A DNA stretch of 45,646 nucleotides, from assembly GCA_019314155.1 (NCBI GenBank), contig JAFCZV010000008.1:1-45646 (forward strand), in the 5' to 3' direction. This DNA comes from Deltaproteobacteria bacterium (GTDB lineage Bacteria; Desulfobacterota; Desulfobacteria; Desulfobacterales; UBA11574). The notes beneath the pieces were generated by a model. That model had not been told where the DNA came from. It saw only the letters and a list, made by a program, of their open reading frames with translations, and made no database searches. The first letter of the stretch is position 1; each line of letters begins with the position of its first letter. The position numbers and the translations under genes were made by a program. Positions 5,596 through 43,096 of the stretch are shown here, piece after piece.

Positions 5596-5754
5596 ATTGC
5601 TAAAAAAATAAGACTGTCTATAATATTGTCAAGCCGGAAATGGGAATTTTAGGTTATGGGATTTAGAGTGCCCAAGAACAGCACAAAAAATGAGAAGGAT
5701 AAAAATTTGGTTGTGCACCCTCTATCGAATCTTTGCTGAAAAATAATAAGCCAA

Positions 5755-26859: not shown

Positions 26860-27018
26860 TGTGAGCCTTAAAGTTGATCAACAGTAATAGGGTAGAACAA
26901 AACGATTTGAATTTCAAGAGCTTGGAAAGCGAGAAATTATCGTTGAATTTGACGGTGGAATGATTACATCCTATAGGGTCGGGCTACTTCTGAGAAACAG
27001 AAGAACCGATGCATATCG

Positions 27019-27621
27019 TTATATAACGGCGGCGACAGCCTCCTTGGCAAAATCGATAAACCCTTGGGGGAATATGCCCAGCAGAATAATGATGACAATA
27101 AAAAAGATCCCGAGAACCGATGTGGAAACCCGGAGATGGATCGGCGAAACCTGGTCATCCACACCGGTATAGGCCGCCCGGACCATTTTAAGATAGTAGA
27201 AAATTGCGATACCCGAATTGATCACTGCAAGGATAACCAGTGCTTACATATCTTTTTTAATGGCGGCGGTAAAAATAAAGAGCTTTCCGGTAAAACCGAT
27301 GGTCGGGGGGATGCCGGCCAGACCGAGGGCGCCGACAGCCAGCATTAGCGCCATCAGGGGTGAACGTTTATACAGTCCTTTCAGATCATCAAAGGAAACA
27401 TTTTCCCCTTGGGGCGCCAGGTGGTATATAACAAAAAAGCAGGCCAGATTCATAAACAGATAACCTACAACATAGTATATACCAGAAAGATAACCCAATT
27501 CACTGGCACAAAGAAGACCGATCATCAAATAACCGGCGTGGGCAATACTGGAGTATGCCAGCAGACGTTTTAAATCGGTCTGCACAAGGGCGGACAAGTT
27601 AGTAAGGAAGTTGCTAAAAAA
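27019..27621 (-). pseudogene. nuoN: 3' fragment of an NADH:quinone oxidoreductase subunit N (NuoN/ND2 family) gene with an in-frame TAA
   Basis: ...[27 protein letters not shown]...[26 protein letters not shown](27244..27246)-ALVILAVINSGIAIFYYLKMVRAAY... About 300 N-terminal residues are missing. A TAG at 27622..27624 closes the frame upstream. Confidence 0.75.
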
Positions 27622-27734: not shown

Positions 27735-28547
27735 CTATACTATGTCTTGTTCGAGCTTTTTGCTTAACGACTTCAGTTCGGAAGAGATTTTTGGTTTCGT
27801 CAGAATAACAATAAGGTCAAAAGTTTCCTGCTTTTGCTCGCTGTTTTCTAAATATTTAAGGGTCATAGGTTCCGCATCCCGGCCCTTTTCAACGGATTCC
27901 GGTGCTCCGGCTATAATCTGAAGCCCAGGGATTTTTTCTGCTTCGTTGAGGAACTTTTCTTGAAAGGATTGACATAAGGGGGAGATCAGGACAATTTCGA
28001 GATCTTCTGTTTTGTCGAGAGCAATGATCGATTCGTTGACACCCAGAATCAGACTGGAAAGAAGGTGCTCTTCATCGCCATTTGTATTACCCTGAACAAC
28101 GGCAATACGTCCGGGGATCTCACCGTCCAGAGGAGAAACCACCATTCCGTTGAAGGGGCCGGTTGGTGAGAGCATCCTCTCAAACTGTAAATCTGTGATG
28201 ACGTCAGGATATTTTCCATAACATAATTGGGGATTAAACGGGTGAAATGCGTTGTCCTGCCCCTTGGTAATAACGACCTCGTCAAATTCCAGCTCCAGCT
28301 CCTCGTCCGGGATGTCAAAATCGATGGCTTCAGGTTTACATTCAGCCCAACAAAGGGCACAACCCAGGCAGCGCCGGCAGCCTAAACATCGTTTGGCTTC
28401 TTGAATCGCCATCTCTTCAGGAAAACCGGTTTCAACTTCCGTATAATTTTCCCTTCTTTCATCCACCGAAATCTCCGGCATTTCTGCCCGCGGAGACGGT
28501 ACATCACTGAATGGTATAATATAGCGTTTTTCTTTTTCGTAGGTCAT
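27735..28547 (-). CDS. Fe-S protein with a GltD/NfnB-type N-terminal ferredoxin region and an HdrA-fragment-like C-terminus
   Basis: 270-aa ORF: ENYTEVETGFPEEMAIQEAKRCLGCRRCLGCALCWAECKPEAI, then LQFERMLSPTGPFNG (HdrA-like). The start abuts the stop of the upstream gene. Confidence 0.75.
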   Translation of the reverse strand: MTYEKEKRYIIPFSDVPSPRAEMPEISVDERRENYTEVETGFPEEMAIQEAKRCLGCRRCLGCALCWAECKPEAIDFDIPDEELELEFDEVVITKGQDNAFHPFNPQLCYGKYPDVITDLQFERMLSPTGPFNGMVVSPLDGEIPGRIAVVQGNTNGDEEHLLSSLILGVNESIIALDKTEDLEIVLISPLCQSFQEKFLNEAEKIPGLQIIAGAPESVEKGRDAEPMTLKYLENSEQKQETFDLIVILTKPKISSELKSLSKKLEQDIV

Positions 28548-30215
28548 TTACTTGTTCCTCAGGTATGCATGAATGCCCTCAGCCGCCCGTTTACCATGGG
28601 CAATCGCACGAATGGCAATATCCGGGCCGGTCACCACGTCACCACCGGCAAACACACCCGGGAGATTTGTGGCACCTGTCTCTTCATCTATTTCGAATGT
28701 GTTCCAGCGTGAAAGTTCAAAAGTATGCTCTTTGGGAAGAAAGCTCAAATCGGCACCCTGACTGATTGCAGGCACAATGGTTTGGGCATCGATAACATAT
28801 TCAGAGCCTTCCATAGGAACCGGACGTCTGCGGCCCGAAGCATCCGGTTCACCCAGCTCCATCTTGATGCACTTCATACCCGTGACTTTACCATTTTCAC
28901 CCAAAATTTCCACCGGGGCAGCAAGGTACTGAATAATAACTCCTTCGTGCTCAGCAGCATCAATTTCCCACGAGTTGGCCGGCATCTCCTTTTTCGTCCG
29001 GCGATAAAGAATATAGACTTCGTCAAATCCCATACGCCAGCCCACACGGGCCGAGTCAATGGCTGCATTACCCCCGCCGATTACGATAAGCTTTCCTTTA
29101 GCCTCCGGCAGATTGCCCAGGGCTTGGTTCCTCAGAAAGGTCACACAGTCAATAATCCCCTCGTATTCATCTTCACCGGGAACCCGCAGCTTGAGGCCGG
29201 TGTGGCAACCCGCGCCAATAAACACGGCGTCATATTCTTTTCTAAGATCTTCAAAAGCGATATCTTTGCCGATACGCATATTGTATTGAATCTCCACTCC
29301 CATGTTGCAGATAAGGTCTACTTCGCGCTGCAGGAGTTTTTTGGGCAAACGATATTCTGGAATACCCACCCACAGATAACCCCCGGGGACAGGCAGGGCT
29401 TCAAAGATCTTGATATTCGAATATCCCATTCTTGCCAGGTCATGGCCACAGGTCAAACCAGCAGGGCCCGCCCCGATAATCGCAATCTTTTCTGGATACT
29501 TCTGTTCAGGCGTTTCATAGACCGGCTCAATGCCCTGTTGCAGCTCAACATCCGCAGCATACCGTTTGAGGAAACATATGCTGATCGGTTCATCCAGATA
29601 CTGCCGGTTGCAGGCTGTTTCACAAGGATGCGGACAGATACGGCCGATACTGCCGGGAAGCGGTAGTCTCTCTCTGATTTTAGCCAGAGAGTCAAGATGC
29701 CTGCCGTCTGCAATGAGACCGACATAAGCGCGGATATCAAGATTAACGGGGCATGTCTCCTGGCAGACCGGCATGTCTTCCTTATAGATGTTGTATTCGC
29801 CGGTTTTGGGGTGGCAGTAGTCCACGGCGGTGCGAAAGCCCAAACCCTCGTCAAAGTCGTCAAACATGTTAACCGGACAGACCTTTATACAGGCCTTGCA
29901 GTCGTTGCACTTACTATTATCGACCATGAGGCTGCGTTTTAAGATCCGGGCCTGTATGCGTCCGTTCTCCGGAGACACCTTTTTGAGATCAGTGTAAGTC
30001 AAAATCCGGATGTTCGAATGATTGCGAACCTTCTCCAAGTCAGGGTTTACAAAGGCCTCATCCGGTTTAATCAGCCTGTCCCTTGGGATTCTTTCTCCAC
30101 CTAGAGTGGGGAACTTCTCGACAATAGTAACCTGGTCCCCTGCTTCTGCTCTTTCAAGGGCGGTCCGGACTCCATTGAGTCCTCCTCCAACAACCAACAC
30201 TTTTTTGTCTTCCAC
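28548..30215 (-). CDS. NfnB/GltD-like NAD(P)H-dependent flavin oxidoreductase with an N-terminal HdrA-like FAD-fold remnant and ferredoxin insert
   Basis: 555-aa ORF: VLVVGGGLNG; CNDCKACIKVCP; ICPHPCETACNR; IAIIGAGPAGL; PGGYLWVGIPEYRLPK; VIGGGNAAID; VFAGGD. Confidence 0.85.
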   Translation of the reverse strand: MEDKKVLVVGGGLNGVRTALERAEAGDQVTIVEKFPTLGGERIPRDRLIKPDEAFVNPDLEKVRNHSNIRILTYTDLKKVSPENGRIQARILKRSLMVDNSKCNDCKACIKVCPVNMFDDFDEGLGFRTAVDYCHPKTGEYNIYKEDMPVCQETCPVNLDIRAYVGLIADGRHLDSLAKIRERLPLPGSIGRICPHPCETACNRQYLDEPISICFLKRYAADVELQQGIEPVYETPEQKYPEKIAIIGAGPAGLTCGHDLARMGYSNIKIFEALPVPGGYLWVGIPEYRLPKKLLQREVDLICNMGVEIQYNMRIGKDIAFEDLRKEYDAVFIGAGCHTGLKLRVPGEDEYEGIIDCVTFLRNQALGNLPEAKGKLIVIGGGNAAIDSARVGWRMGFDEVYILYRRTKKEMPANSWEIDAAEHEGVIIQYLAAPVEILGENGKVTGMKCIKMELGEPDASGRRRPVPMEGSEYVIDAQTIVPAISQGADLSFLPKEHTFELSRWNTFEIDEETGATNLPGVFAGGDVVTGPDIAIRAIAHGKRAAEGIHAYLRNK

Positions 30216-30310
30216 GTTTTTACACCTCTTGAGGCACTAGTTGAACGTCTCGGAATTTCTACAACTATATGAAATCAATAGTCTTTTAATGGCAACCTGT
30301 TTGTGCCATC

Positions 30311-30426
30311 GGAATGGAATACTGGAATGCTGGAATATTGGGGATAAAAGCGGAAAATAAACCATTTAAATTGTAAAAAAACTCCTTCAAACCCATCATT
30401 CCATTACTCCATCATTCCATTATTCC
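30311..30426. repeat. Repeat-armed inverted repeat (8-nt period GGAATnnT)
   Basis: The left arm 30311..30343 (ggaatggaatactggaatgctggaatattgggg) is complementary in register to the right arm 30392..30426 (cccatcattccattactccatcattccattattcc). The right arm overlaps the stop codon of gene 30420..31208. Confidence 0.8.
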
Positions 30427-31208
30427 AATTGGGGCGAAGCCACTAAGTTCAAGATTGGCGATCGGCCGGTTACCTTGTCAAGGGCAACCATACCCTTTCG
30501 TTTGAGGGCGGTTATGTATCGAAAGACCCTTTCTGAGGGAATGGCCAGGTCCCGGGCCAGGTCCTTGACTGACCGGGCACCTTCCTTGAGTCTGGCAAGA
30601 ATTTCCTGGACCTCCATTTCTTCCACTATGATCATATCAATGGCACGGTTAAATTCGTGTTCCGTGAAGATTTCACCGTACTTGTTGCCTGACTCCATAA
30701 ATTCGGTTTGCTTGCCGATGATCCACCGCATCTTTTCGCCGGCCAGCACCGCCTCGGCTGCTTCCAGCTTCTTAAAGATTTCAGGAGCCTGCAGGGTGTC
30801 TCTTCCACCTCCAATAGGTCCTAAACCGCGAATCTTCTCATTAAACTTGGTAACCAGTTCTACAAAGACGGCGGCTTCGCCCGAAGAGCATTGCCGAAAA
30901 GCAAGACGATTTTCATTGACACCAATATATTCGAAAAGTCGGCGAGTCATGTCTATTTTAATCTTGGCCTGGACATTCCCGGTGATATAATGGCAGTCGC
31001 CGAAATGGCACCCCACTACCAAAAGACCGTCAAGTCCTTTTTTGAAGGCCTTGGCTACGGTCGCCGGGTCCATCCGACCGGAACACATGATTCGAACAGT
31101 CTTAATCTCCGGGGTATATTGTAGTCTGGAAACTCCAGCTAAATCAGCGGCGGAGTATCCTCACCATGTACAGCAAAACGCGAGAATTTTGGGAACGAAT
31201 TGGGTCAA
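30420..31208 (-). CDS. mvhD: MvhD-like [2Fe-2S] protein with selenocysteine (TGA 31161..31163) and a C-terminal winged-helix-like domain
   Basis: TTG start at 31208 behind RBS GAGGAGG. The hand-translated N-terminus is [40 protein letters not shown], joined in frame to the ORF-track product MCSGR...VVGCHFGDCHY.... The C-terminal 60 aa (ILARLKEGARSVKDLARDLAIPSERVFRYITALKRKGMV) look like a wHTH. Confidence 0.8.
31122..31141 (-). promoter_or_regulatory. Candidate SECIS hairpin for TGA 31161..31163
   Basis: mRNA UAG(C)CUGGA-GUU-UCCAG(A)CUA, beginning 19 nt 3' of the UGA. Confidence 0.5.
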
Positions 31209-31227
31209 AGGAACCTCCTCAAAAAAA

Positions 31228-31367
31228 TTGTTGATTTATGATTGTTGATTGTCGATTGAAAAAAAAGTACACTTACCGACTTTAATCTACGTTTTTTTCT
31301 TACTTGATTTTCTGCTTTGTGCTGTTCTTCAATAAATCACCAATCATCAATCATACATCATCAATCC
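31228..31367. repeat. Repeat-armed inverted repeat (7-nt period GATTGnT)
   Basis: Arm 31228..31258 (ttgttgatttatgattgttgattgtcgattg) against arm 31330..31367 (caataaatcaccaatcatcaatcatacatcatcaatcc). 25 of 31 positions are complementary and the loop is about 71 nt. The distal arm overlaps the stop codon at 31361. Confidence 0.85.
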
Positions 31368-33046
31368 AAAAACGCGTCAATCTGAGCTTCAAGTTGGTTG
31401 TTTGTATAGGAGTTAATGGTTAAGGCGTGCTGATAGCAGGTAGCTGCGCACACCCCGCACCCCTTGCAGGCCACATCAATCACGTGAACCTTTTTCCCTT
31501 TTTCCGTGTTGCTAATCTCAAGAGCACTATAAGGACAAAGCGCGACGCAAAGGCTGCAGCCCCGGCAGGCGTCTTCATCCGCCAATACAGAAATAATCGG
31601 CTCTACAACAATCGAACCCTTAGACATGGGAATCGAGGCTCGAGATGCCGCACCTAAACCCTGGGCAATCACTTCTCGAATATTGGCCGGAAAACGGGCG
31701 CTGCCGCAAAGGTAGATGCCGTCGGTAGCAAAATCGAGCGGTTTTAACTTAACATGACCTTCCAGAAAAAATCCGTTTTCATCAACCGGCACCCTGAGAA
31801 GCTGAGAACTCACATTGGCATCCTCTTGGGCAACCAGCGGTGTGGAAAGGACCACTATATCCGCAGTCAAAGTCATTTCGCGGCCAAGTAGAGAATGGTA
31901 AACTCGCACCTGATCGGATTCCACCTGGGGAGGCCGGGCAGAATCATAATGGATGTACCGGACTCCCCTGGCTTTGGAATCCCGGAACATCTCTTCGTTT
32001 TCGACACCGTACATCTGCATATCCCGATAGAGAATGGAAACTCCGGCATCCGGGATTTGATCCTTGATCAATATAGCGTTCTTGACGGCTATCTGGCAGC
32101 AGATCCGCGAACAGTAGGGTCTCTCTTGATTGCGACTTCCTACGCACTGGACGATAACAACGTTCTTGACATCTGTATCCAAACCTTCTTTGAGAAGCTG
32201 CTCCATCTCAAGCTGGGTGATAACGCGCCGGCCGTCATAGCCGTAAAGGCCCTCGGGAACAAAGGCACGGCTACCAGTGGCCACTATGATAACCCCAATG
32301 TCAAATTTCTTTTTGCCGGATTCGGTCTCGACCTCGACGTCGAATTTGCCGATAAACCCCTGGACGGCGGTAACGCGTGCCCCGGTGAAGACGGTAATCT
32401 TGTCATGTTGCATGACTTCCCTTATCTTCTCCTCAATCAGCTCACCCGCATCTGTCATGGCGGGTCCAAGCTTATGCAGCCGGTTCAGCATGCCGCCTAA
32501 TCCCTCTTCCTTTTCAACCAGCACCACTTCATATCCACGCCTGGCAAGGGCCGCAGAGGCTGTCAGGCCGGCGATTCCTCCTCCAATAACAAGAGCCCGG
32601 GCACAAACTTCGGACATAATGGACTCCTGGGGTTTTAATAAAGCCGCCTTGGCAACTCCCATACGGATAAGATCCTTTGCTTTGGCGGTTCCATCCACCT
32701 GCTGTTGCATATGCACCCAGGAGCATTGATCGCGGATATTGACCATCTCGAAAAGATAAGGATTCAGCCCGGCCTCTTCACAGGAACTTCGAAAAAGAGG
32801 TTCATGGGTTCTCGGCGTACAGGAAGCAACCACAACGCGATTGAGGTTTTGCTCTTTGATTCCCTTTTTAATTTCGTTAATGCCGCCTTCAGAACACGAA
32901 TAAAGATTCCTCTGTACAAACGTTACATAGGGAATCGTCCGGGTATAATCGTCAAGCGCTTCCATATCCAGATAGCCGGCAATGTTGGATCCGCAATGGC
33001 AAAGAAATACTCCGATCCTGATGTCATTGTCTTTATTCTCAGGCAA
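31361..33046 (-). CDS. HdrA-like flavoprotein (N-terminal Fe-S domain, FAD domain, C-terminal 2x[4Fe-4S] ferredoxin)
   Basis: 561-aa [65 protein letters not shown]...CKGCGVCAATC. The TTG start lies behind RBS AAGGAGAAGG and overlaps the upstream stop by 8 nt. Confidence 0.85.
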   Translation of the reverse strand: MPENKDNDIRIGVFLCHCGSNIAGYLDMEALDDYTRTIPYVTFVQRNLYSCSEGGINEIKKGIKEQNLNRVVVASCTPRTHEPLFRSSCEEAGLNPYLFEMVNIRDQCSWVHMQQQVDGTAKAKDLIRMGVAKAALLKPQESIMSEVCARALVIGGGIAGLTASAALARRGYEVVLVEKEEGLGGMLNRLHKLGPAMTDAGELIEEKIREVMQHDKITVFTGARVTAVQGFIGKFDVEVETESGKKKFDIGVIIVATGSRAFVPEGLYGYDGRRVITQLEMEQLLKEGLDTDVKNVVIVQCVGSRNQERPYCSRICCQIAVKNAILIKDQIPDAGVSILYRDMQMYGVENEEMFRDSKARGVRYIHYDSARPPQVESDQVRVYHSLLGREMTLTADIVVLSTPLVAQEDANVSSQLLRVPVDENGFFLEGHVKLKPLDFATDGIYLCGSARFPANIREVIAQGLGAASRASIPMSKGSIVVEPIISVLADEDACRGCSLCVALCPYSALEISNTEKGKKVHVIDVACKGCGVCAATCYQHALTINSYTNNQLEAQIDAFLD

Positions 33047-34589
33047 CGGCCTTCTCCTTTTCTGACTTTAATTGAATTGCGATTTCAGCGGCACGTTCGG
33101 CAGCGCTTGAAGCCTGGGCCACAGATTCCGGTACATCCATGGGCGACTCTGCACAACCGCAGACAAAAACTCCCGGCACTGTGGTGTCGACCGGAGAGAG
33201 GGGGCTCGTCTTTATGAAGTTGTACTTATCCAGTGCGACTTCAAAAACTTTGGCCAGCTTAATAATTCCCTTGGTTGGCGCACAGGCGGTAGCCAGGATC
33301 ACCATGTCGAAATCCCGGCTTTCCACTTGCCGCTTGTGCGTGTCTTCGTAAATCACGACTGGATTGTTAGCAGGACCCTCCATGATCTCACTGACCCTCC
33401 CGCGGACATAGGAAATGTTCGAGTTGTTGCCGCCTCGTATTTTATACTCTTCAAATCCTTTGCTTACCGCCCGGATATCCATGCCGAAGATGGTGGAGGT
33501 CGTCTCCGGCTCGTGCTCGTGGGCGATTACGGCCTCCTTGATGGAGTGCATGCAGCAGTAACCCGAGCAAAACGGATAAAACCGGAAATCACGGGAACCC
33601 ACGCACTGGACAAAGGCCAGTTTCTTGGCGACGGTAAAGCCCTCGGCCTTCTTTTTCAAGGCTTCCAGGGGTTCCATGATCGCCAGATGGGTAGCATACT
33701 TATCAGCCCACTTCTTGCGGCCCTGTTCGTCCCGGTCGTCCTGATATTGGCCTTGCCGGTATTGATTATAAAATTGAGCGGAAGTTTGGTCATATTTTTT
33801 TTCAAGTTTCTCGAGCGTTCGCTTAGATTTTTTTAAATTCTTTTCAAGTGCTGCAATCTCGGCTTCAACGGCTCGATCCGAGGGACGATCCAGATGTCCT
33901 TCTGTGGGACCGCTGGCGCTCAAGAGTCTTTCGAACTCCATTGCCGTAACCACGTTGGGGATTTCCCGGTACCGGTATTCGGGAATCTGTGACGGATCGA
34001 AAACGTCGTATCCGACGGCAATGATTATGGCACCTACATCGAGGGTTATGATCATGTCTTCCTGATCAAAATTTATGGCGTCGGCCTGACAGGCTTTTTT
34101 ACAGATCCCACATTTTTTGCCTTTAAGCTGACGACAGAAATCAGGGTCAATGGTATGGGTCGAGGGTATGCCCTGGGCAAAGTAGCTGTAAATTGCACTG
34201 CGACTGCCCAGACCTTCATTGAAGGCATCCGATACCTTGGTCGGGCATTTTTCAGCACAGGCGCCGCAGCCGGTACATTTGTCCTCCTCGACATAGCGTT
34301 TTTTCCTACGCACGGTGACATTGAAGTCTCCCGCCAGACCTTCTACCTTCTCGACTTCGCTGTAGGCCAGAAGAGCTATATTAGGATGTCGACCGACATC
34401 CAGCATCTTGGGCGAGAGGATTCAGATGGCACAGTCGTTGGTAGGGAAGGTTTTATCCAGCTGTGCCATCTTGCCGCCGATGCTGGGCAGTTTTTCCACC
34501 AGGTGGACGTTGACACCCATGTCTGCAAGGTCCAGAGATGCCTGGATTCCAGCAATCCCTCCGCCTATAACCAGTACGTCTTGACTCAT
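33039..34589 (-). CDS. hdrA: HdrA-like FAD/Fe-S protein with selenocysteine (TGA 34422..34424)
   Basis: ATG at 34589. Hand translation: [61 protein letters not shown], joined in frame to the ORF-track product MLDVGRHPN.... The TGA falls at the second Cys of the HdrA FPTNDCxxC motif. Confidence 0.88.
34384..34401 (-). promoter_or_regulatory. Candidate SECIS hairpin for TGA 34422..34424
   Basis: mRNA GGAUGUC-GGUC-GACAUCC: a perfect 7-bp stem with a GGUC loop, starting 20 nt 3' of the UGA. Confidence 0.65.
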
Positions 34590-34607
34590 AATCTGTGTCC
34601 TTATTTT

Positions 34608-34740
34608 AAGTGACTAAAGTGAGCTAAAGTTATAAGTGAGCTAAGGTTGTGGAACTCGCCTTCGGCGATGTCAATGTTATAATTAAAATAGATAGAATAC
34701 CTTAACTTTAGGCACTTCAAACCTTAGGCACTTCAAACTT
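34608..34740. repeat. Repeat-armed inverted repeat (about 13-16-nt unit AAGTGAGCTAAAGTT)
   Basis: Arm 34608..34648 (aagtgactaaagtgagctaaagttataagtgagctaaggtt) against arm 34699..34740 (accttaactttaggcacttcaaaccttaggcacttcaaactt). The centre contains a GCC-TTCG-GGC mini-hairpin. Confidence 0.8.
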
Positions 34741-34745
34741 TTCAG

Positions 34746-35873
34746 TTACTCTGTTTTCAGGCAATCGGTAACCAGGTCATACAAATCTGTGATCTCTATT
34801 TCCAGATCAAAAGCTGCTTTTGCACACCGCAAGTGAATCTGGCATTTGGGGCAGGCCGTTACTAAGGTGCCGGCACCGGTGTCGCTTGCTTCACTAAGGC
34901 GTTGCAGCTGGATGTCTTTGGAACAGTTGGAACAGTTCATCCAGCCGGAAGTTCCGCAGCAGACACCGTTTTCTCTGGAACGGGGCATTTCTTTGAGTTC
35001 AATTCCTGGGATAGCTTCCAGAAGTCTGCGGGGTGCATCGTAGACACCTGCCATCCTGCCAAGCCGGCAGGGATCATGATAGGTCACCACTTCTGCTTTG
35101 GATTCCGATAGCTGAATGATACCCGAACTCAGTTTGTCTGCCAGAAAATCAAGAATGTGGACCGGTTCAAAATCGAGCTTTCCAAAATACTTGGGATAAT
35201 AATCTTTAAAGGTATGATACCCTTCCGGGCAGCTGAAAATCACCTGCTTGGCACCTGAAGAACGGATCATATCAAGATTCCAGCGAGCAAGTTGCTTGAA
35301 CGTGTCTTCGTTGCCGTTCCAAAGCGCATCATGGCCGCAACACCGTTCATCATTACTGACCACCGGCTCCACCCCGCAGGCGTTTATAATTTTCAGCACA
35401 TTCCGGGCCCCTTGAATTGATCCGGCATTGATATTCCGAAAAATAACATCAAAATAAGGCCTGCATCCCACAAAATAAAAAACATCGCCCGTTTCTTTGG
35501 TTTTCCCATCCTCGACCCAAAAAGTGCGGTTTTGCTGAACATCCTTGGTCTGGATGGACATAATAGCCTGCAGCATCCCATGGTGAGCCGGAACGCCGTC
35601 AAAACCCAGCAAATGGGCTTCATCACGCATCAGGCGAATGAATTCAGGAAAATTTATGTCGGCCGGACAACGGACACTGCACTGGGCGCAGGTAAGGCAG
35701 CTCCAGATAGTATCGTCTGAAAACTCCTCCAGTTCATAAAGAGAGCGCTCAATAATCTGCCTGGGTGAAAATTCGGGGAAAATCCTGGAAACCGGACAGC
35801 TTCCGGTACATACCCCGCAATCAAGACAGTAATAGGTCTTCGTAGCGTTAACCATTTCTACGATCGTATTCAT
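34746..35873 (-). CDS. HdrD-like Fe-S oxidoreductase (HdrC-type 2x[4Fe-4S] fused to HdrB-type CCG domains)
   Basis: 375-aa ORF: CLDCGVCTGSCP, CLTCAQCSVRCP, then CCG-type motifs (ERCCGHD, HDPC, VCCGTSG, TACPKC). Confidence 0.85.
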   Translation of the reverse strand: MNTIVEMVNATKTYYCLDCGVCTGSCPVSRIFPEFSPRQIIERSLYELEEFSDDTIWSCLTCAQCSVRCPADINFPEFIRLMRDEAHLLGFDGVPAHHGMLQAIMSIQTKDVQQNRTFWVEDGKTKETGDVFYFVGCRPYFDVIFRNINAGSIQGARNVLKIINACGVEPVVSNDERCCGHDALWNGNEDTFKQLARWNLDMIRSSGAKQVIFSCPEGYHTFKDYYPKYFGKLDFEPVHILDFLADKLSSGIIQLSESKAEVVTYHDPCRLGRMAGVYDAPRRLLEAIPGIELKEMPRSRENGVCCGTSGWMNCSNCSKDIQLQRLSEASDTGAGTLVTACPKCQIHLRCAKAAFDLEIEITDLYDLVTDCLKTE

Positions 35874-35975
35874 GCTAACCCCTTTGGTTTTTATTTTGCA
35901 GTCGTTCAGGGTTGCTTTTCTATTGTTAACCTTTACTAACCCCGAACCTTGAACCTTTGAACGGTTATTTTTTTA

Positions 35976-36395
35976 TCAGGCCGCCTTTTTTAAGATGGAT
36001 GGTCCCAAAGATTTAATCTGCTCAGTAAAGTTTCTGGCAACCTCAGCAAAACGCGTTCCTTCTGCCGATGAAATCCATTCCAGGCGCAGTCTCCCAGATT
36101 CAATTCCAAGTATACTGACCAGCTCCTGGGTCATTTGGAACATCTTTTCGGCCTTTATATTACCATCCAGGTAATGGCAGTCGCCCATGTGTCATCCAGC
36201 TACCAGGACACCATCGGCACCCAATTGCAGGGCCTTTAAGATGAAATTGGGGTTCACCCGGCCTGAACACATTACGCGAATGATGCGCATGTTGGACGGA
36301 TATTGAAGACGGCTAACGCCTGCCAGGTCGGCAGCCGAATAGGCACACCAGTTACAGGCAAACGTAATGATCTCTGGATTGAATTCTTCAGCCAT
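35976..36395 (-). CDS. mvhD: MvhD-like [2Fe-2S] protein with selenocysteine (TGA 36192..36194)
   Basis: ORFs 36192..36395 and 35976..36188 are in one frame: ...[23 protein letters not shown]...[21 protein letters not shown].... The TGA replaces the first Cys of the MvhD GCHxGDCHY motif. Confidence 0.85.
36159..36175 (-). promoter_or_regulatory. Candidate SECIS hairpin for TGA 36192..36194
   Basis: mRNA AUUACC-UGGAU-GGUAAU: a perfect 6-bp stem starting 16 nt 3' of the UGA. Confidence 0.55.
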
Positions 36396-36449
36396 TAAGT
36401 AAATCCTCCCGGATCTGGTTGATTCGTTAATTGGTAAAATGGTTAATTG

Positions 36450-39400
36450 TCAATTAAAAGCGGCCTCCACCATCGTTAGCACCTGCTGGTCATCAAAATG
36501 GAAAATAGAAGCCGCACCGGTGGGACAGGCAACAGCACATGAGCCGCATCCCGTACACATGGCCTGGTTTACTTCACAGAGAATACGGTCTTCATGAAAG
36601 TCAATGGCCTGATAAGGGCAGGCCTCCAGACACTGCCGGCATCCCCTGCAGAACTGTGCATTAATATCAGAGACGATGGCATTGCCCAGGACCTTGTCCT
36701 TGGACAGCAGCGTAGCCGCTCGTGAAGCGGCTCCCAGACCTTGAGCTACGGCTTCGTCGACAGGTTTGGGCGCATGGGCCAGGCCGCAGACAAACACCCC
36801 TTTGGTGGCAAAATCTATGGGCTGGAGTTTGACATGGGCTTCCACAAAAAAGCCATCTTCATTCACCGGCACCTTGAACAATTGAGCAATGGGATTTTCC
36901 TGCGGTGCCACAATCGCAGTGGCCAATACCAGCATATCCGGTTTTATCTCGATCTCGCGCTGCAGCACATAGCTGGTGCATCTAACATTAAGACCGTTTT
37001 GATCTTTGGAAACGGTTAAACCTTTGTCAAAGTCATAACGAATAAAGACTACGCCTTTGGCTCGGGCCTCACGGTACAGCTCCTCCCGCAATCCATAGGT
37101 TCGCATATCCCTGTAGATAATGAAGACATCCATCTCGGGTTTTGACTCTTTTAATTTGAGCGCACTTTTGACAGAGTGAGTGCAGCACACCTTGGAGCAG
37201 TACGGCCTTTCTTTGATTCGTGAGCCGACACATTGTATAAAGACCGCCGAATCAGTTTCATTTAGAGGCAAACTATTATCGATAAATTTTCGATCCAATT
37301 CCAAAGCGGTCAGAACACGCGGATCTTCACCGTATAAATATTCATCCGGTTTTAACTCTACAGCACCTGTGGCAATAATCGCCACTCCGTGCTCGATTAC
37401 CTGCTCTTTTCCCGCATTTTCAACGGTGGTTTGAAAATTACCCACAAAGCCGCCCACTTTTTTTACTTGGGTGTTTGTCAGGATATTGATGTTTTGATCG
37501 GATTCTATGTCGCTAATAAGCCTTGTTAGATTTTGCTGAACATCTTCGCCCTGCCAGGTTTCATAAAGGTTCACTGCCTGTCCTCCCAGGGCGTCGTTCT
37601 TTTCAATAAGATGGGTGAGATATCCCTGCTGTGCCAGATTCCTTGCCGCGGTAATTCCGGAAAGACCACCGCCGACAACCAGAGCGGACTGGTTCATTAT
37701 TATCTCCGGATCGGCAAGCGGCTGCAACAAGCTCACTTTGGATACTGCCATGCGTACAAGGTCTATAGCCTTTTCAGTGGCTGCGTCTTTTTCGTTGCTG
37801 TGCACCCAGGAACACTGATTGCGAATATTAGCCATTTCAAAGAGATATTTATTGATCCCCGCATTGAGTACGGTTTCCTGAAAGAGAGGTTCATGGGTAC
37901 GCGGGGTGCAGGCGGCTACAACAACGCGATTTAATTTTTGCTCTTTAATAACCTGGGTTATTTGTTCCTGGGTATCCTGACTGCAGCTGAAGAGATTATC
38001 TTCTACAAAAACTACGTTGGGTAAGGTTTTGGCATATTCGACGACATCCGGAACCTCTAAAAAACCGGCAATATTGGTTCCACAACGACAGACAAACACG
38101 CCTATCCGCGGGTGCTCTCCCCGTACATCTAGCTCTTTAGGGGTTGACTTTGTCCGTATCATAGACCCGCGGGACTCGGCCAGCATACTTTCCACCACGG
38201 CAGCAGAGGCGCTCGATTCGATAACGGACTGGGGAATATCTTTGGGGCTTTCAAAGGTGCCGCATACAAAAATACCGGGTTTTGAAGTCTGAACAGGTTC
38301 AAAACTGCTGGTTAGAGCGTGCTGATATTGATCGAGCTCAATTCCCAGCTTTTGGGCCAGGCCCAGCGCTTCCTTTGACACGCCAAAGCCCACCGACAGG
38401 ACTACGATATCAAACGCTTCTTCAATCCGTCGGCCGGTTTCGTCTGTGTAGCTGATAAGCAGATTGCCCGAATCGCCGTCCGGGTGAATCGTGCTGATTT
38501 TTGATTTGACAAAACGCACGCCCACCTCTTTGGCCCGGTTGTAGTAACGCTCAAAATCTTTACCGAGGGTCCGCATATCAATATAAAATATGGTGGTATC
38601 CAGCTCCCCCTTCTGGTGCTCTTTGGCTATAATAGCCTCTTTTATGGAATAGGTACAGCAGACCGCCGAACAGTAAGGCTGTGACCCAGGGTGCATGTCT
38701 CTGGAACCCACGCATTGAATCCAGGCAATTTTCTGCGGCTCTTTGTGATCGGAAGGTCTTACCAGATGCCCGCTGAAAGGTCCGGTTGCCGCAAGAATGC
38801 GCTCAAATTCCAGGCCGGTAACTATATTCGGTGATTTTTTGTAACCATAGGTGTCGTAAGTACCAGGATCATACACCGAGCAACCGGGGGCTATCAGCAC
38901 CGCACCTGCATTTATGGTTAATTCCTTGGGTTGGTCCTCAAAATTAATAGCGTCAGCAGGACAGAATTTCTCACAGGCCTTACATTTGCCCTTTTTAAAA
39001 TAGATGCAATTTTCATCAATGGCGTACTTTAAAGGCACCGCCTGTTCGTATTTCACATAGATCGACTTGCGTTTGGCTAGACCGGCGTCGAATGCGTTTG
39101 TCACCTTTTTGGGACACTTTTCAGCACAAATACCACAGGCAATACATTTATCCATGTCAACATACCGGGGTTGTTGCAAAACCTTGATTTCAAAATTTCC
39201 TTCCTCCCCGGAAATGCTTTGCACTTCTGTCAGGGTCAAAAGCTCAATGTTAAGATGCCGGCCGACCTCGACCAGTTTAGGTGAGATGATTCACATGGAA
39301 CAGTCATTAGTGGGAAAGGTCTTGTCCAGTTGAGCCATGATACCGCCTATGGAGGAGGATCTTTCCACTAGAAAGACATAAAAACCTGAATCGGCAAGAT

Positions 39401-39470
39401 CCAGAGCAGCCTGCATACCGGCTATCCCCCCACCGACTACCATTACCGAACCTATTTTCTCATTTGACAT
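36450..39470 (-). CDS. hdrA: Large tandem HdrA-HdrA fusion flavoprotein (about 1006 aa) with selenocysteine (TGA 39291..39293)
   Basis: ATG at 39470. Hand translation: [77 protein letters not shown], joined in frame to the 929-aa ORF-track product. The second half repeats the HdrA architecture ([45 protein letters not shown]-terminal [12 protein letters not shown]...[12 protein letters not shown]). Confidence 0.9.
39258..39275 (-). promoter_or_regulatory. Candidate SECIS hairpin for TGA 39291..39293
   Basis: mRNA CUGGUC-GAGGUC-GGCCGG: a 6-bp stem including two G-U pairs, with GGUC in the loop, starting 15 nt 3' of the UGA. Confidence 0.55.
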
Positions 39471-39473
39471 TTT

Positions 39474-40346
39474 CTACTCCTGAATCAAAAAAGATGTAAC
39501 GCCACTGATATCGAGCTGATTCATTCCGATTCCCAAAGTCTTTTCGTCAATTCCCATACTCAGCCCTAAAAGTTGCGGGTAAAGAACAGGGGCAAGCGAG
39601 TCATTCCCGTTTTGAGAGATTATTACTTTTTGTATTGTATCAAATTGCAGATGACAGTACGGACAGGCCGAGCAGAGATAGTCAGCACCGACTTTTTTCC
39701 CGTCTGCTATCTTTCTTTTGGTCAAACTCATGGAAAGATCATCATTTACGCCCAGTACGGGAGCTCCGCAGCATTCCAGTTTGCTGGTCCAATCGACGCT
39801 TTTGGCGCCTGTCACCTCAACCAGCTTATCAAACAGAGTGGGGGCAACCGGATCATCGAATTGGGTGATCTTGCTCGGCCGCAGTGCATGGCAACCGTAA
39901 TGGGTCACGATTTTAAAATCTTTGTATTGTCTGGTTATTTTGCTTTTTAAGGTGTCCAGGCCAACATCATGATACAGCACGGAAAGAAAATGCTTGATCT
40001 TAGGTTTGCCGGCGTAATTCAGGTCTCTTTGAGCCAGCAATCTGTTGACTTCTTCCTGCAAATTCCCTTCTTCCTTCAGTATATGCTCTGCTTCCTTAAG
40101 GCTGCCAAAGCAACATTTGCAAAGGACCATGATATCGAGCCCCGCTTTTTCTGCCAGGGCCAGATTTACGGCAGAAGAAAAAAGAAACGACCTCTGGTCT
40201 GAATTTCGTAAGGGATACCCGCAACAGTTAAATTCGCGGATATCCGTCAGACGTACGTCTATCTGCCTTAAAATTGCCCTGGCAGAAGCTTCATACTGTT
40301 CAACCCGGGCAGGAATATTACAGCCCAAGAACAATGCATATTTCAT
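39474..40346 (-). CDS. hdrB: HdrB-like protein (two CCG domains)
   Basis: 290-aa ORF: FLGCNIP...FNCCGYP, ...HYGCHALRP...LECCGAP. The stop lies 3 nt before the start of the large hdrA. Confidence 0.87.
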   Translation of the reverse strand: MKYALFLGCNIPARVEQYEASARAILRQIDVRLTDIREFNCCGYPLRNSDQRSFLFSSAVNLALAEKAGLDIMVLCKCCFGSLKEAEHILKEEGNLQEEVNRLLAQRDLNYAGKPKIKHFLSVLYHDVGLDTLKSKITRQYKDFKIVTHYGCHALRPSKITQFDDPVAPTLFDKLVEVTGAKSVDWTSKLECCGAPVLGVNDDLSMSLTKRKIADGKKVGADYLCSACPYCHLQFDTIQKVIISQNGNDSLAPVLYPQLLGLSMGIDEKTLGIGMNQLDISGVTSFLIQE

Positions 40347-40380
40347 AATGATATCTTTCTTAATGTAATCGAATAGTTAC

Positions 40381-42162
40381 TCATGCTGCCTCTAAATCGG
40401 AGGGGCTTTCATCGGCAGTCTTTTCCGCATTTTTAACAGCAAGATTCTTTAACTGAAAGAAAATATCCGTGACCTGGACGTTCTGGGGGCAATGCTCCTG
40501 GCACTGATAACAGGTCACGCAATTCCAAAGCATACTTGGGCCGGAAGCCATTTCTACCAGGCCCAAACCAAGACAGTTCATGATTTGATGGGGCAACAGG
40601 CCCAGAGTCTTTTGAGGATTCTCATAGCAGACTACAACGGGACATACTGTGGTACAGTTCTGGCAGCCAAAGCAGTAGGAGAATGTGCTGCTGCTTGGCA
40701 GCTTGTTCAATTCAGCGATTTTTCTGTCCTTAAAAGAGATCGGCCTGCTCTTATCCATTACCTGTTCAAACTTGCCGGCAGCAGCCCGGCTTGCCACTGA
40801 CAGCGGCTTGCCATAATCATCTTCAGAGATATTCTCTCTATTCAAGCCCCGGTAAAAGGAAAACGGAGAAAGAATCAGCAGCTCCGGATAGCCTCTTTGA
40901 ACCAGATCCTCCCTTACAACGAACCATAATTCCCTGAGATTGATCCCTGCCGGACAAACCACGGTACATCGGTCACAATTCGTGCAAAGGTAAACACCTT
41001 CCTGTATGGCGCACAGCTCCTTTTGGCTGAGGTCTTTCCCGGAAGCCAGGCTTTTGAGAAAGGTCATCTTTTCTGAAGGCAAAATGTATTCATTGCCCAG
41101 GGCATCAAATGCCGCCGAGGCAGAGCATCGCAGACTGCAGGTTCCACAGCGCATGCAGGCATCCAGCTCCATGGCCTGCCGCGTTGCAATATTTGCCGGG
41201 TCTGATTTTTCCTTGTCCATGACTGAATTTGCAAGCAGGCTTAGGGGCGTGGCGAAAATGTGAAACATCTTGCTGAACGGCAGATAGGCCAGTCCAAAAA
41301 AACAGGCTAAAAAATGGATATACCACAGGATGTCAGAGGCTTTCGCTCGGTCCAATGCTAAGGCGATAGGTTTCGATATTTTGGCAAACGCATACCCCAT
41401 AAAGGCCCATTGAGGCGGAGAATGACAGTCCATACAACTCTCCTCGTGAATCTCTTGGCCCGAAACCAGCACATCTTCTTCGAAAGGACCCTTTACATTC
41501 GGGGATACTACACTAAACTTTTGAACCCAGTAACTTTCAAGCGCCTTTATTTCATCTTCGTCATCCTCTAAGGTCATATCGGCATAATCCTCCACCATGA
41601 TCTGAAATTCGGTATAAGACGCAATTTTTGTTGCTTCCAGAAGCACACCCGAAATCATAATGACGGCCAGAATAATAATGGCATAGTGATCCATGGCGTT
41701 GGTTTTTAGGCGGGGCACTTTCAAGATGAACCGTCGATATATGGCAATACCAACACCAATAATTACCATAAAACCGAACAGATCTCTTAAAAACATAAAT
41801 GGATTGACCGTGGAATAGTAATCGGTGAAAAGAGGCTCGGATATAAAGACCTCGAGAGCATGCATCAAAAGAAGGAGCATAAAGCCGGTGTAGATCAACA
41901 TGTGCATCAACCAGCGGAGAAAATCCTCCTTGAGAATCCTTCTCTGCAGCACAACATCAAGGACAAAAACCTGGATAAGGATCAGAATGTTTGCACTGAA
42001 AATAACTCCCAGCATCCCTTTGACAGACGCAGATATCCTCTCAGACGGTGAGATGCCTTTGGCTGAAATGCCGATTCTGCGAGTAAACCAGGTCGAAATT
42101 TTGTAGATCAGACCAAGGGCTAAGATAATAAGGGCAATGTACAATGAGATAGAGAAAAACAT
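40381..42162 (-). CDS. Membrane NarI/HdrE/DsrM-like cytochrome b domain fused to two HdrC-like 2x[4Fe-4S] modules
   Basis: 593-aa ORF. The N-terminal ~300 aa have 5-6 TM helices with conserved His (HMLIY, MHALE, DHYAI, YIHFLA, FHIF). The C-terminal part has CMRCGTCSLRC...CTNCDRCTVVCP and CFGCQNCTTVCP...CVTCYQCQEHCP. Confidence 0.83.
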   Translation of the reverse strand: MFFSISLYIALIILALGLIYKISTWFTRRIGISAKGISPSERISASVKGMLGVIFSANILILIQVFVLDVVLQRRILKEDFLRWLMHMLIYTGFMLLLLMHALEVFISEPLFTDYYSTVNPFMFLRDLFGFMVIIGVGIAIYRRFILKVPRLKTNAMDHYAIIILAVIMISGVLLEATKIASYTEFQIMVEDYADMTLEDDEDEIKALESYWVQKFSVVSPNVKGPFEEDVLVSGQEIHEESCMDCHSPPQWAFMGYAFAKISKPIALALDRAKASDILWYIHFLACFFGLAYLPFSKMFHIFATPLSLLANSVMDKEKSDPANIATRQAMELDACMRCGTCSLRCSASAAFDALGNEYILPSEKMTFLKSLASGKDLSQKELCAIQEGVYLCTNCDRCTVVCPAGINLRELWFVVREDLVQRGYPELLILSPFSFYRGLNRENISEDDYGKPLSVASRAAAGKFEQVMDKSRPISFKDRKIAELNKLPSSSTFSYCFGCQNCTTVCPVVVCYENPQKTLGLLPHQIMNCLGLGLVEMASGPSMLWNCVTCYQCQEHCPQNVQVTDIFFQLKNLAVKNAEKTADESPSDLEAA

Positions 42163-42380: not shown

Positions 42381-42646
42381 AAGCTTCAAATGATGTCAGC
42401 AAATCAATTTTTGTTTTAAGTCAGTTAACACAAGCAATTCAAAAAGAACTCTTTTCGATCTAAGAAAATCCCCTGTTGCAAAAGGCGATATAATTATAAT
42501 TTTAGGCTTAATTTGTCAAGGAATGTTTTTAAATTTCAGGGTCGGGTCAAGTTTAATTCAACCGTGGATGCATGTGAACCTGCTTCCCAATCCATGATTT
42601 CAGCCCGTGCCGCCAATGCCCCAAGGGGCATGCCGGAAATGAACTA

Positions 42647-42719
42647 CCCCGCAGCAGAGCTGCGAGGTATCAAAATGAATTTTTATCTTATTAACCCCGA
42701 TGCAGAACATCGAGGAATC
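42647..42719. repeat. Two copies of a 25-nt hairpin repeat with compensatory stem changes
   Basis: ccccGCAGCagaGCTGCgaggtatc (42647..42671) and ccccGATGcagaaCATCgaggaatc (42695..42719). The flanks are conserved and the stems differ but still pair. Confidence 0.7.
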
Positions 42720-43090: not shown

Positions 43091-43096
43091 CGGCCT

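Follow-up and report, generated by a model that had tools for sequence, protein, structure and literature searches.

Introduction

In methanogens, acetogens, sulfate reducers, and anaerobes that degrade aromatic compounds, flavin-based electron bifurcation by HdrA-type proteins plays a central part in conserving energy. To our knowledge, only soluble HdrA-based bifurcating versions have been characterized, and no direct connection between a bifurcating HdrA and the quinone pool of the membrane has been demonstrated, although one was proposed for Qmo and, at an earlier time, for class II benzoyl-CoA reductase (BCRII). Here, we describe a cluster of ten co-oriented genes, g1 to g10, that is a concrete candidate for such a link and is very common in environmental sequence data. 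The cluster fills positions 27735-42162 on the minus strand of contig JAFCZV010000008.1 (GenBank assembly GCA_019314155.1, a Deltaproteobacteria bacterium placed in Desulfobacterales, UBA11574); we analyzed positions 1 to 45,646 of this contig, a stretch of 45,646 nt that we refer to as the window. The explanation that we favor, and hold to be somewhat probable, is that the region encodes an HdrA-type flavin-based electron-bifurcating or -confurcating system made up of two overlapping conserved units. It is probably a widely distributed version, so far unstudied, of energy-conserving complexes that are already known.

Several described systems provide points of reference. In BCRII, cryo-electron microscopy has revealed a bifurcating unit, fed by an NADH module, that consists of BamE (a fused HdrA dimer), BamF, and the HdrD-like BamD; BamE of Geobacter metallireducens carries Lys280, Gln768, and a Cys59/Cys62 pair, one of its two FADs being non-bifurcating, and BamF combines an MvhD part with Rossmann and winged helix-turn-helix (wHTH) domains and has a selenocysteine (Sec) at position 19 (10.64898/2026.04.10.717634). 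On the membrane side, ETF:menaquinone oxidoreductase (EtfD/EMO) relays electrons from non-cubane clusters through heme b to menaquinone, and the NarI-like domain of the Syntrophus EMO is reported to hold three heme b, one of them a stacked "twin heme" at the distal position (10.64898/2026.08.18.745454). Genome papers from 2009 onward list component types such as Sec-containing HdrA, HdrL, MvhD, HdrD, and a membrane HdrF; the HdrL type (HdrA::GltD) was first named in the Desulfobacterium autotrophicum genome paper of Strittmatter et al. 2009 (PMC2702500). Syntrophobacter fumaroxidans grown on sulfate contains a related HdrABC/HdrL/MvhD cluster in abundance (PMC5947623), and Murali et al. report a different complex, of HdrA with a heme-c/CCG membrane part, in HotSeep-1 (PMC10553843). 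In the literature that we searched, we found neither a ten-gene arrangement of the present kind with an assigned function nor, allowing for a possible earlier mention in reviews, a description of a cytochrome/2xHdrC fusion bearing a CxxCH motif, of the g1-g4 core, or of an eight-gene unit with a doubled (HdrA)2.

Results

Gene content of the cluster

An earlier reading of this DNA, made from its letters alone (below, the sequence-only reading), had proposed ten minus-strand genes, and this layout is borne out by the re-joined open reading frames and by Pfam and NCBIfam profile searches of all ten proteins, with intergenic gaps of -8 to 204 nt. In minus-strand order, g1 (40381-42162, 593 aa) encodes a membrane anchor composed of a NarI/EMO-type cytochrome b domain and two HdrC-like 2x[4Fe-4S] modules, and g2 (39474-40346, 290 aa) an HdrB-like subunit with two CCG domains. 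Then come g3 (36450-39470), a fused (HdrA)2 selenoprotein of 1006 aa, and g4 (35976-36395, 139 aa), an MvhD-type [2Fe-2S] adaptor. These are followed by the HdrD-like g5 (34746-35873, 375 aa), with 2x[4Fe-4S] motifs (Fer4) and two CCG domains; g6 (33039-34589, 516 aa), which corresponds to the TrxR1-type half of an HdrA; g7 (31361-33046, 561 aa), the second HdrA half; and g8 (30420-31208, 262 aa), an MvhD with a C-terminal wHTH-like extension. At the far end, g9 (28548-30215, 555 aa) joins an N-terminal HdrA segment to a GltD/NfnB-type NAD(P)H flavoprotein, and g10 (27735-28547, 270 aa) joins the C-terminal tail of GltD to the middle of an HdrA TrxR domain. More than 30 Fe-S clusters are predicted for the cluster, in addition to its four selenoproteins.

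Translation of g7 would begin at a TTG behind AAGGAGAAGG that overlaps the g6 stop by 8 nt, with start codon, Shine-Dalgarno sequence, and overlap exactly as first read; g8 also starts at a TTG, 6 nt 3' of GAGGAG, and the g10 start abuts the g9 stop.

Two conserved units overlap at g3 and g4

We surveyed gene neighborhoods from two anchors: g1, using the best 80 of 391 matches in GTDB species-representative genomes, and g5, which contributed six further contigs (L086-L091) from about four further organisms. Relatives of g1 are abundant, amounting to the 391 matches among species representatives, 2,942 protein clusters at 90% identity (E <= 1e-20), and, for the membrane domain alone, 840 representatives at 50% identity; they bear generic annotation only. 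All 80 g1 loci are metagenome-assembled genomes (MAGs) assigned to Desulfobacterales, Thermodesulfobacteriota, Syntrophales, or Desulfatiglandales, and neither the best 80 loci nor the best 120 proteins included a cultured carrier of g1.

The gene order around g1 is highly conserved: g2 lies directly 3' of g1 in 75 of the 80 loci (three others end at a contig edge), and an HdrA gene (g3) follows g2 in 66 of these 75 (eight others end at a contig edge). This g1-g4 unit is widespread without g5-g10. The g3-g10 block, for its part, is present in all six further contigs, where identity to the window is 65-86% for g4-g10 and none of the four in-frame UGAs is lost; in L089 it occurs together with g1-g2. 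We accordingly read the cluster as the union of two conserved units, g1-g4 and g3-g10, which share g3 and g4, and g1-g2 as an optional add-on to the conserved eight-gene unit g3-g10. The ten genes had initially been taken as one unit, which stands insofar as the full arrangement recurs (in L089 and, as far as the contigs reach, in L007, L008, L014, and L068); it is not indivisible, being composed of the two overlapping units.

Around this core, the partner genes vary. At least 16 loci have g3 broken within its inserted ferredoxin domain by NuoE- and NuoF-like genes, together with a NuoG-like N-terminus joined to what remains of HdrA, and in two loci a GltD domain is found at the same point (HdrL). 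FlxC-FlxB-FlxA genes lie directly downstream of g4 in 15 loci, nine of which then end with a DsrC gene (PF04358, E = 7e-32), and in six loci g4 is followed by genes for FdhB and a Sec-containing FdhA. Together, these optional parts (membrane module, NAD(P)H, Flx, Fdh, DsrC) represent a natural experiment on the electron donors and acceptors served by the (HdrA)2 core.

Several of these neighborhoods deserve mention in their own right. The loci in which g1-g4 precede an FdhB-like Fe-S protein and a Sec formate dehydrogenase alpha subunit are L009 (16436-19600), L013, L019, L007, L080, and L082; L009 comes from Eth-SRB2, a partner of ethane-oxidizing archaea, and Seep-SRB cultures likewise have the core. 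By this gene order, formate would be an alternative donor for the membrane-anchored core. In L056 (81-4790, a Thermodesulfobacteriota MAG), MetV and MetF genes come after a different (HdrA)2-MvhD pair, also fused, in a cluster of the methylene-THF reductase type that lies about 5 kb upstream of the g1 of that locus. The (HdrA)2-MvhD module has, from its gene contexts, evidently been reused with several partners. Divergent from, and directly upstream of, g3-g10 in L088 (718-4473) and L091 (622-4748) are genes for a PAS/GAF sensor kinase and a sigma-54-dependent response regulator, which we consider candidate regulators of the unit.

The HdrA/MvhD module is present twice

As had been proposed from the letters, g3 is an HdrA-HdrA tandem of about 1006 aa, which matches the NCBIfam HdrA2 profile over positions 141-562 and then again over about 1-640 (968.5 bits, under the cutoff of 1100). 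Its residues 9-378 align to positions 146-511 of the structurally defined HdrA chain 5ODC_A (TrxR1 with its inserted ferredoxin domain), residues 452-606 to positions 2-156 (the HdrA N-terminal domain), and residues 866-1005 to positions 509-650 (the C-terminal part, with its ferredoxin domain); a second TrxR domain (TrxR2, containing K768) lies between the N-terminal and C-terminal pieces. In methanogen HdrA, Lys409 is the residue adjoining N5 of the bifurcating FAD. The TrxR1 part of g3 has a lysine, K277, that aligns with this Lys409 of 5ODC_A, and it also has the inserted ferredoxin domain and a C57-x-x-U60 pair. The hallmarks of a bifurcating FAD are thus present in g3: the Lys409 equivalent, the Cys/Sec pair, and the inserted and C-terminal ferredoxin domains all align. 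The ...xxVK/IK motif around K277 recurs at K768 of g3, K351 of g6, and K322 of g7.

The same module is found in split form in g6-g8. The product of g6 covers HdrA2 profile positions 139-569 and carries K351, and that of g7 covers positions 1-232 and 326-650, comprising an N-terminal Cys domain, TrxR2 (K322), and a C-terminal ferredoxin domain. Identity to the first part of g3 is 52% and 41% in two segments of g6; g7 is 43% identical to g3 residues 451-1006 over 562 aa; and g8 is 49% identical to g4. These comparisons agree with the sequence-only reading that an HdrA+HdrA+MvhD module is present twice (g3+g4 and g6+g7+g8), and they point to a duplication that is both real and old. Among the adaptors, g4 matches Pfam FlpD/MvhD (E = 2e-54) and scores 134.5 bits against the VhuD model (cutoff 215). 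The g8 product has a BamF-type architecture, with a FlpD match (E = 1.5e-46) and a C-terminal wHTH; its MvhD part is as first described, and its wHTH assignment rests on a weak TrmB match (E = 1.3e-4, below the Pfam cutoff). We note in passing that residues 250-321 of g6 (33627-33842) form a Cys-free, charged, coiled-coil-like insert of about 73 aa that is not in g3, is kept in orthologues, and weakly matches the TumA antitoxin model (E = 1e-6).

The same features bear on whether the proteins bifurcate at all. A non-bifurcating chain or a pyridine-nucleotide transhydrogenase, resembling Nfn or an NADH:quinone oxidoreductase, could pass electrons between NAD(P)H, a second nucleotide, and a quinone or disulfide without energetic coupling. 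Two nucleotide sites are suggested by L088 and L091, each of which has two GltD-type modules, one inserted in g3 and one in g9, and one of the two FADs of BamE, as noted above, is non-bifurcating (10.64898/2026.04.10.717634). Such a chain would nevertheless have kept the Lys409 equivalent, the Cys-x-x-Sec pair, the inserted ferredoxin domain, and the MvhD adaptors, all of which are hallmarks of bifurcating HdrA, and four selenoproteins with more than 30 predicted Fe-S clusters would be costly for a simple dehydrogenase. We regard this alternative as very improbable.

Four in-frame UGA codons encode predicted selenocysteines

The four in-frame UGAs (all minus strand) lie at 39291-39293 (g3, Sec60), 36192-36194 (g4, Sec68), 34422-34424 (g6, Sec56), and 31161-31163 (g8, Sec16). 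In homologues, the g3 column contains 56 TGA and 12 TGT codons and the g4 column 22 TGA and 10 TGY; the g6 codon is TGA in all orthologues, and the g8 codon is TGA in nine orthologous loci, with Cys in the paralogous MvhDs.

Downstream of the g3 UGA, the synonymous sites are frozen, and this signal in the RNA is an even stronger argument than the codon columns. Codons +6 to +11 of g3-type genes read CTG GTC GAG GTC GGC CGG, and each of these positions uses a single codon in 51 of 51 distinct sequences (50 of 51 for the last codon); conserved residues flanking the stretch use two to four codons each. The frozen stretch can fold into a 6-bp hairpin with a GGUC-containing loop (CUGGUC-GAGGUC-GGCCGG, 39258-39275, minus strand, 18 nt after the U of UGA), a putative selenocysteine insertion sequence (SECIS). 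The g4 family shows the same synonymous freeze over AUUACC-N5-GGUAAU in 22 of 22 sequences, corresponding in the window to a SECIS-like hairpin at 36159-36175 (minus strand; AUUACC-UGGAU-GGUAAU).

Single-sequence folding backs only two of the four SECIS candidates: the g6 hairpin (34384-34401, minus strand; GGAUGUC-GGUC-GACAUCC), which is significant on its own (z = -2.78; 0 of 200 shuffles were as stable), and the hairpin predicted for g8 (31126-31138, minus strand; z = -2.08). The g3 hairpin is weak by this measure (z = -0.73). Rfam gave no SECIS or other RNA within the cluster, its only match in the window being a signal recognition particle (SRP) RNA at 5711-5960. We read all four in-frame UGAs as genuine Sec codons, in agreement with the sequence-only reading, because the codon is either TGA or a Cys codon across homologues and because synonymous variation is suppressed over the hairpin just downstream.

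As had also been anticipated for standard gene calling, public gene calls split all four genes at their UGAs; routine annotation thus breaks and mislabels every selenoprotein gene of the cluster. Because of this splitting, the complexes are under-counted in metabolic reconstructions of sediment sulfate reducers.

An HdrD-like subunit and a split HdrL

The profiles confirm the early calls of g5 as an HdrD-like CCG protein, of g2 as HdrB, and of g4 as MvhD. One CCG motif of g5 has four Cys (C137, C178, C179, C215) and the other five; its best solved relative is EtfD/EMO 9OJN (E = 1.3e-36), and its orthologues, at 74-89% identity, always lie between g4 and g6.

The last two genes required a larger revision. 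Residues 1-140 of g9 correspond to the FAD-binding N-terminus of HdrA with the first half of the inserted ferredoxin motif (HdrA2 139-280), and residues 143-555 are of the GltD/NfnB type (Pfam Fer4_20 and Pyr_redox_2; PRK12771, 446.9 bits against a cutoff of 516), so the GltD part of the originally proposed NfnB/GltD-like flavoprotein is present but the protein is not purely NfnB-like, being preceded by an HdrA N-terminus. The product of g10, first described as a small Fe-S protein, instead consists of the GltD-type C-terminal Cys motif followed by HdrA2 positions 268-503. Together, g9 and g10 make up a split, C-terminally truncated HdrA::GltD fusion of the HdrL type, directly after the MvhD gene g8; what defines HdrL, a GltD-type NAD(P)H domain inserted in an HdrA protein and adjoining mvhD, is found here. 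The g9/g10 split is conserved in seven other loci (L007 and L086-L091) at 65-85% identity.

The order g5, g6+g7, g8 (with its wHTH and a Sec near the N-terminus), and then an NAD(P)H module is collinear with bamDEF-GHI. One could accordingly view the region as the electron-delivery half of a low-potential reductase, for instance a BCRII-like tungsten enzyme or one that carries out some other difficult reduction. The gene for the catalytic subunit would then lie at another place, g5-g8 would stand for BamD/E/F, and g9/g10 would replace BamGHI. The numbering of K277, K768, and C57/U60 in g3 is nearly that of BamE Lys280, Gln768, and Cys59/Cys62, and relatives with NuoEFG-like genes have donors of the BamGHI kind; the comparison to BamDEF is, however, by published description only. 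The sequence-only reading had seen this resemblance and the lack of a catalytic partner, and both hold up: the architectures match the description, and neither the window nor any of the roughly 90 related loci examined has a BamB/BamC-like gene, the neighborhoods instead holding Flx, Fdh, DsrC, or MetFV. We consider such an electron-delivery role improbable.

A single aldehyde:ferredoxin oxidoreductase (AOR)-family gene, stand-alone and unlinked to the cluster, is present in the window (16853-18970, plus strand, 705 aa). Its closest solved relative is Pyrococcus furiosus AOR (E = 2e-54), and BamB (4Z3W, E = 3e-21) is the weakest match of nine solved AOR-family structures listed. We rejected it as a missing BamB, given that BamB is its worst match among these and that it lies on the other strand, about 9 kb from the cluster.

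The membrane module

The sequence-only description of g1 as a NarI-like cytochrome b with two HdrC modules agrees with its Pfam matches, namely Nitrate_red_gam (27.7 bits, cutoff 22.9) and two 4Fe-4S dicluster modules. Among NCBIfam models, the membrane part best matches QmoC (E = 1.6e-16; 60.7 bits against a cutoff of 300), and the second dicluster module is HdrC-like (57.3 bits against a cutoff of 160 for the HdrC model). Its partner g2 matches Pfam CCG twice and the HdrB model TIGR03288 with E = 6e-74 (248.8 bits, cutoff 345); both CCG motifs of g2 are complete, with five Cys each.

In an alignment of 58 g1 sequences with identities down to 30%, only 34 columns are invariant. These include H87, H101, H283, and H301, four His in two helices that are arranged like the heme b ligands of NarI, as well as all but one of the 16 Cys in four CX2CX2CX3C motifs, the exception, C346, being conserved at >=90%. 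Equally invariant over this range is a CxxCH motif (C243, C246, H247), which the sequence-only reading overlooked. The motif falls within an acidic loop of about 95 residues (aa 181-277) that has on average 15.6 acidic and 6.6 basic residues, the loops that are necessarily cytoplasmic being basic. With the Fe-S domains of g1 in the cytoplasm, these charges place the CxxCH loop in the predicted periplasm by the positive-inside rule, and the motif is a possible site of a third, covalently bound heme. By analogy to the Syntrophus EMO, one may speculate that this third heme sits near the distal site and is there held covalently.

An AlphaFold2 (AF2) model of g1 built on the 58-sequence alignment reached a pLDDT of 86.7 and a pTM of 0.83; an earlier model, built on a shallow alignment (38 sequences, 68-94% identical), was unusable (pLDDT 46.5) and was discarded. 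The only significant fold match of the model is Mycobacterium smegmatis EtfD (9OJN, E = 6e-6); HdrC chains match the C-terminal module, NarI aligns with a target-normalized TM-score of about 0.48, and the membrane domain has no sequence-level match in the PDB. As modeled, g1 folds like EtfD/EMO.

From these features arises a bolder proposal, which we put forward tentatively and hold to be doubtful: that the g1 family is a tri-heme (b, b, c) anchor wiring the bifurcating flavin of HdrA to the menaquinone pool, the periplasmic cytochrome c pool, or both. It would then form the first membrane-integral HdrABC-type bifurcating complex, coupling three flavin modules in the window by virtue of the second (HdrA)2 and the NfnB-type flavin. 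If true, such complexes would have a wide distribution among the Desulfobacterales of marine and sediment habitats, some of them syntrophic partners of alkane-oxidizing archaea.

The CxxCH membrane domain also occurs in other contexts. In proteins P0130, P0143, and P0211 (711-716 aa), it is fused to a complete HdrD-like part (two Fe-S motifs and two CCG), and in P0153, P0156, P0175, and P0181 (about 380 aa) it carries only a short Cys/His-rich tail. It looks, from these architectures, like a reusable membrane module.

Proposed electron flow and the nature of the high-potential acceptor

On our favored explanation, the complex would most likely connect NAD(P)H with a low-potential carrier and with either menaquinone/cytochrome or a disulfide. 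The g3-g10 unit would be soluble, containing two pseudo-dimeric (HdrA)2 flavoproteins (g3 fused, g6+g7 split), each with a Cys-x-x-Sec pair beside the presumed bifurcating FAD; the MvhD adaptors g4 and g8, the latter BamF-like; g5 as a non-cubane subunit similar to HdrD, EMO, and BamD; and, in g9+g10, an NfnB/GltD-type NAD(P)H flavoprotein set into a truncated HdrA scaffold. To this, g1-g2 would add an EMO/HdrDE-like membrane module in which two HdrC-like dicluster domains are joined to a di-heme b domain of the NarI type and HdrB is a protein of its own. NAD(P)H would be oxidized at g9, and the MvhD adaptors and Sec/Cys redox pairs would carry electrons to the bifurcating FAD of (HdrA)2. The low-potential electron could then leave through the inserted ferredoxin domain to ferredoxin, and the high-potential electron either through the HdrC-type clusters, HdrB, and heme b (g1/g2) to menaquinone or a periplasmic cytochrome pool, or through g5 to a soluble acceptor, which may be an ETF-like protein or a disulfide of the DsrC type. 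Probably the reaction can also run in the other direction, as confurcation.

Energetically, the transfer of electrons from NADH (-320 mV) to ferredoxin (about -500 mV) and menaquinone (-74 mV) is feasible at textbook potentials. An NADH/ferredoxin/menaquinone complex would, by analogy, be the Hdr-type counterpart of FixABCX/EtfABCX. A constant HdrB/HdrC acceptor module, an HdrA/MvhD core, and interchangeable two-electron donors together suggest the design of Mvh-Hdr, Fdh-Hdr, Flx-Hdr, and BCRII. The sequence-only reading had proposed bifurcation among quinone, NAD(P)H, and a low-potential carrier; this fits the interchangeable donor modules and the EMO-like fold of g1. The analysis establishes which domains are present, the Sec codons, the conserved cofactor ligands, the fold of g1, and the recurring gene neighborhoods; for the rest, we infer the substrates, direction, stoichiometry, heme c, and the joining of all ten products in one complex.

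Several points weigh against this explanation. The source is known as an uncultured MAG, and function is deduced from sequence, predicted fold, and gene neighborhood. There is no ferredoxin, ETF, or DsrC gene in the cluster, and g10 is without the last FAD-binding segment of its TrxR domain. A scan for promoters and terminators gave counts not above shuffled expectation and no operon subdivision; it also found no clear internal terminators, and thus no sign of the separate transcription units with unrelated partners that would have refuted the sequence-only reading. The CxxCH of g1 possibly binds a covalent heme c, judging by its motif. Furthermore, g3-g10 occur without g1-g2 in L086/L087, L088, L090, and L091, which are four of five further organisms, so the membrane/quinone link would not be obligatory and a soluble high-potential acceptor must exist. 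A disulfide acceptor of the DsrC type is, finally, as likely as a quinone, because g2 and g5 keep their non-cubane motifs and DsrC genes adjoin relatives of the cluster; the non-cubane clusters of Hdr and DsrK are catalytic disulfide-reducing sites.

This last point leads to the strongest rival, a DsrC-directed reductase in which the non-cubane clusters of g2 and g5 are themselves catalytic and reduce the DsrC trisulfide/disulfide or another thiol carrier, with confurcation of electrons that g1 would take from menaquinol or periplasmic cytochrome c and the HdrA modules from NAD(P)H or ferredoxin; it would be a membrane-bound relative of Flx-Hdr, DsrMK, and Tmc. The intact CCG motifs of g2 and the DsrC gene that ends nine g1-g2-g3-g4-FlxCBA clusters fit such a role, a periplasmic CxxCH would fit uptake from the cytochrome c pool as in Tmc/Hmc, and both Flx-Hdr and HdrABC/HdrL have been proposed to act on DsrC (PMC5947623; PMC10553843). 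The window itself holds no dsrC, however; g5 scores 56, 70, and 51 bits against the NCBIfam DsrK, TmcB, and HmcF models, far under their cutoffs of 400-750 bits; and the homologous non-cubane clusters of EMO and BamD only relay electrons (10.64898/2026.08.18.745454; 10.64898/2026.04.10.717634). Weighing both sides, we think a DsrC-directed reductase unlikely.

Cluster edges and other features of the window

Directly upstream of g1, at 42761-44161 on the minus strand, are two genes for mercury methylation, hgcA, which scores 452 bits (cutoff 275), and hgcB, which scores 117 bits (cutoff 99). Between hgcB and g1 lies a terminator-like hairpin (42645-42669, minus strand; 11 pairs, 7 of them G-C), followed by a promoter-like TTGACA-18-AATTAT upstream of g1 (42490-42519, minus strand), both being consensus matches only. 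We rejected a functional tie to hgcAB, given the strong hairpin and the finding that the adjacency occurs only in same-species contigs (L001-L005) and in 0 of 80 other loci; it is probably coincidental. At the opposite end, just downstream of g10 (about 26950-27600, minus strand), is a 5'-truncated NuoN/Mrp-antiporter-type remnant with an in-frame stop, in which only PF00361 positions 163-293 are matched. It looks like a decayed pseudogene marking a rearrangement at the g10 end of the cluster.

Two features lie far from the cluster. A perfect 57-bp tandem duplication (3546-3659; 2.0 copies, 100% match) within dnaK (2841-4829, minus strand) yields an in-frame 19-aa repeat present twice, and is either an assembly artefact or a real duplication. 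The SRP RNA mentioned above (5711-5960, minus strand) is of the bacterial large type (RF01854, 142.9 bits), an ordinary housekeeping feature.

Comparison with known systems

Relative to methanogen HdrABC-MvhD, g3, g2, g1, and g4 all score under the curated equivalog cutoffs, and are homologous without being equivalogs. Flx-Hdr of Desulfovibrio vulgaris and Sfum_0819-0824 of Syntrophobacter fumaroxidans likewise combine HdrA, HdrB, HdrC, and an MvhD-type adaptor with an NAD(P)H-oxidizing flavoprotein. Here, in contrast, two copies of HdrC are joined to a cytochrome membrane domain, and HdrA, present twice, takes the form of a pseudo-dimer that is either fused or split; there are four Sec residues, and the HdrL-type protein is split and truncated. 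A tblastn search with FlxA/B/C from related loci found no match in the window, where dsrC was likewise not found. As for NfnAB, profile searches identified no NfnA-like gene in the cluster.

On the membrane side, QmoABC resembles the cluster in placing two HdrA-like flavoproteins and an MvhD-like domain on a cytochrome b/HdrC fusion. The QmoC model, however, matches only the cytochrome b part of g1 and has the reverse domain order (cytochrome b is N-terminal in g1); in addition, the cluster has a true HdrB and HdrA proteins that keep their ferredoxin domains, and there is no aprAB in the window. With EMO/EtfD and HdrDE, g1+g2 share module order and predicted topology (C-terminal Fe-S domains cytoplasmic). 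The four invariant His, the EtfD fold match, the HdrC match, and the two CCG domains of g2 are all of this membrane type, and the spacing of H283/H301 in g1 equals that of H233/H251 in SaEMO. What sets g1+g2 apart from EMO/HdrDE is the second HdrC-like module, the separate HdrB polypeptide, an extra hydrophobic segment after TM1, and the acidic loop of about 95 aa with its invariant CxxCH; the encoded partners are, moreover, HdrA and MvhD, with no etfAB in the window.

The soluble part resembles BamDEF as published: each system has an HdrA dimer fused into about 1000 aa, with a Lys near position 280 and a Cys/Sec pair near 60; an MvhD adaptor that carries an extra domain, a wHTH, and a Sec toward its N-terminus; and an HdrD-like subunit whose two non-cubane motifs have five and four Cys. 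In BamDEF(GHI), as is proposed here, an NAD(P)H flavin module is coupled to an HdrA flavin module. The differences from BCRII are these: the cluster has no BamB/BamC, its NAD(P)H module is of the GltD/NfnB type rather than the NuoEFG type, and it has a membrane anchor, whereas BCRII is cytoplasmic and uses ETF. By residue number only, the second TrxR domain of g3 has a Lys at 768, where BamE has Gln. The cluster is not a benzoyl-CoA reductase, a Qmo complex, or a canonical Flx-Hdr; by its sequence relationships, we place it as a relative of methanogen Hdr, Qmo, Flx-Hdr, Nfn, BCRII, and the DsrK/TmcB/HmcF proteins, and as a member of none of them.

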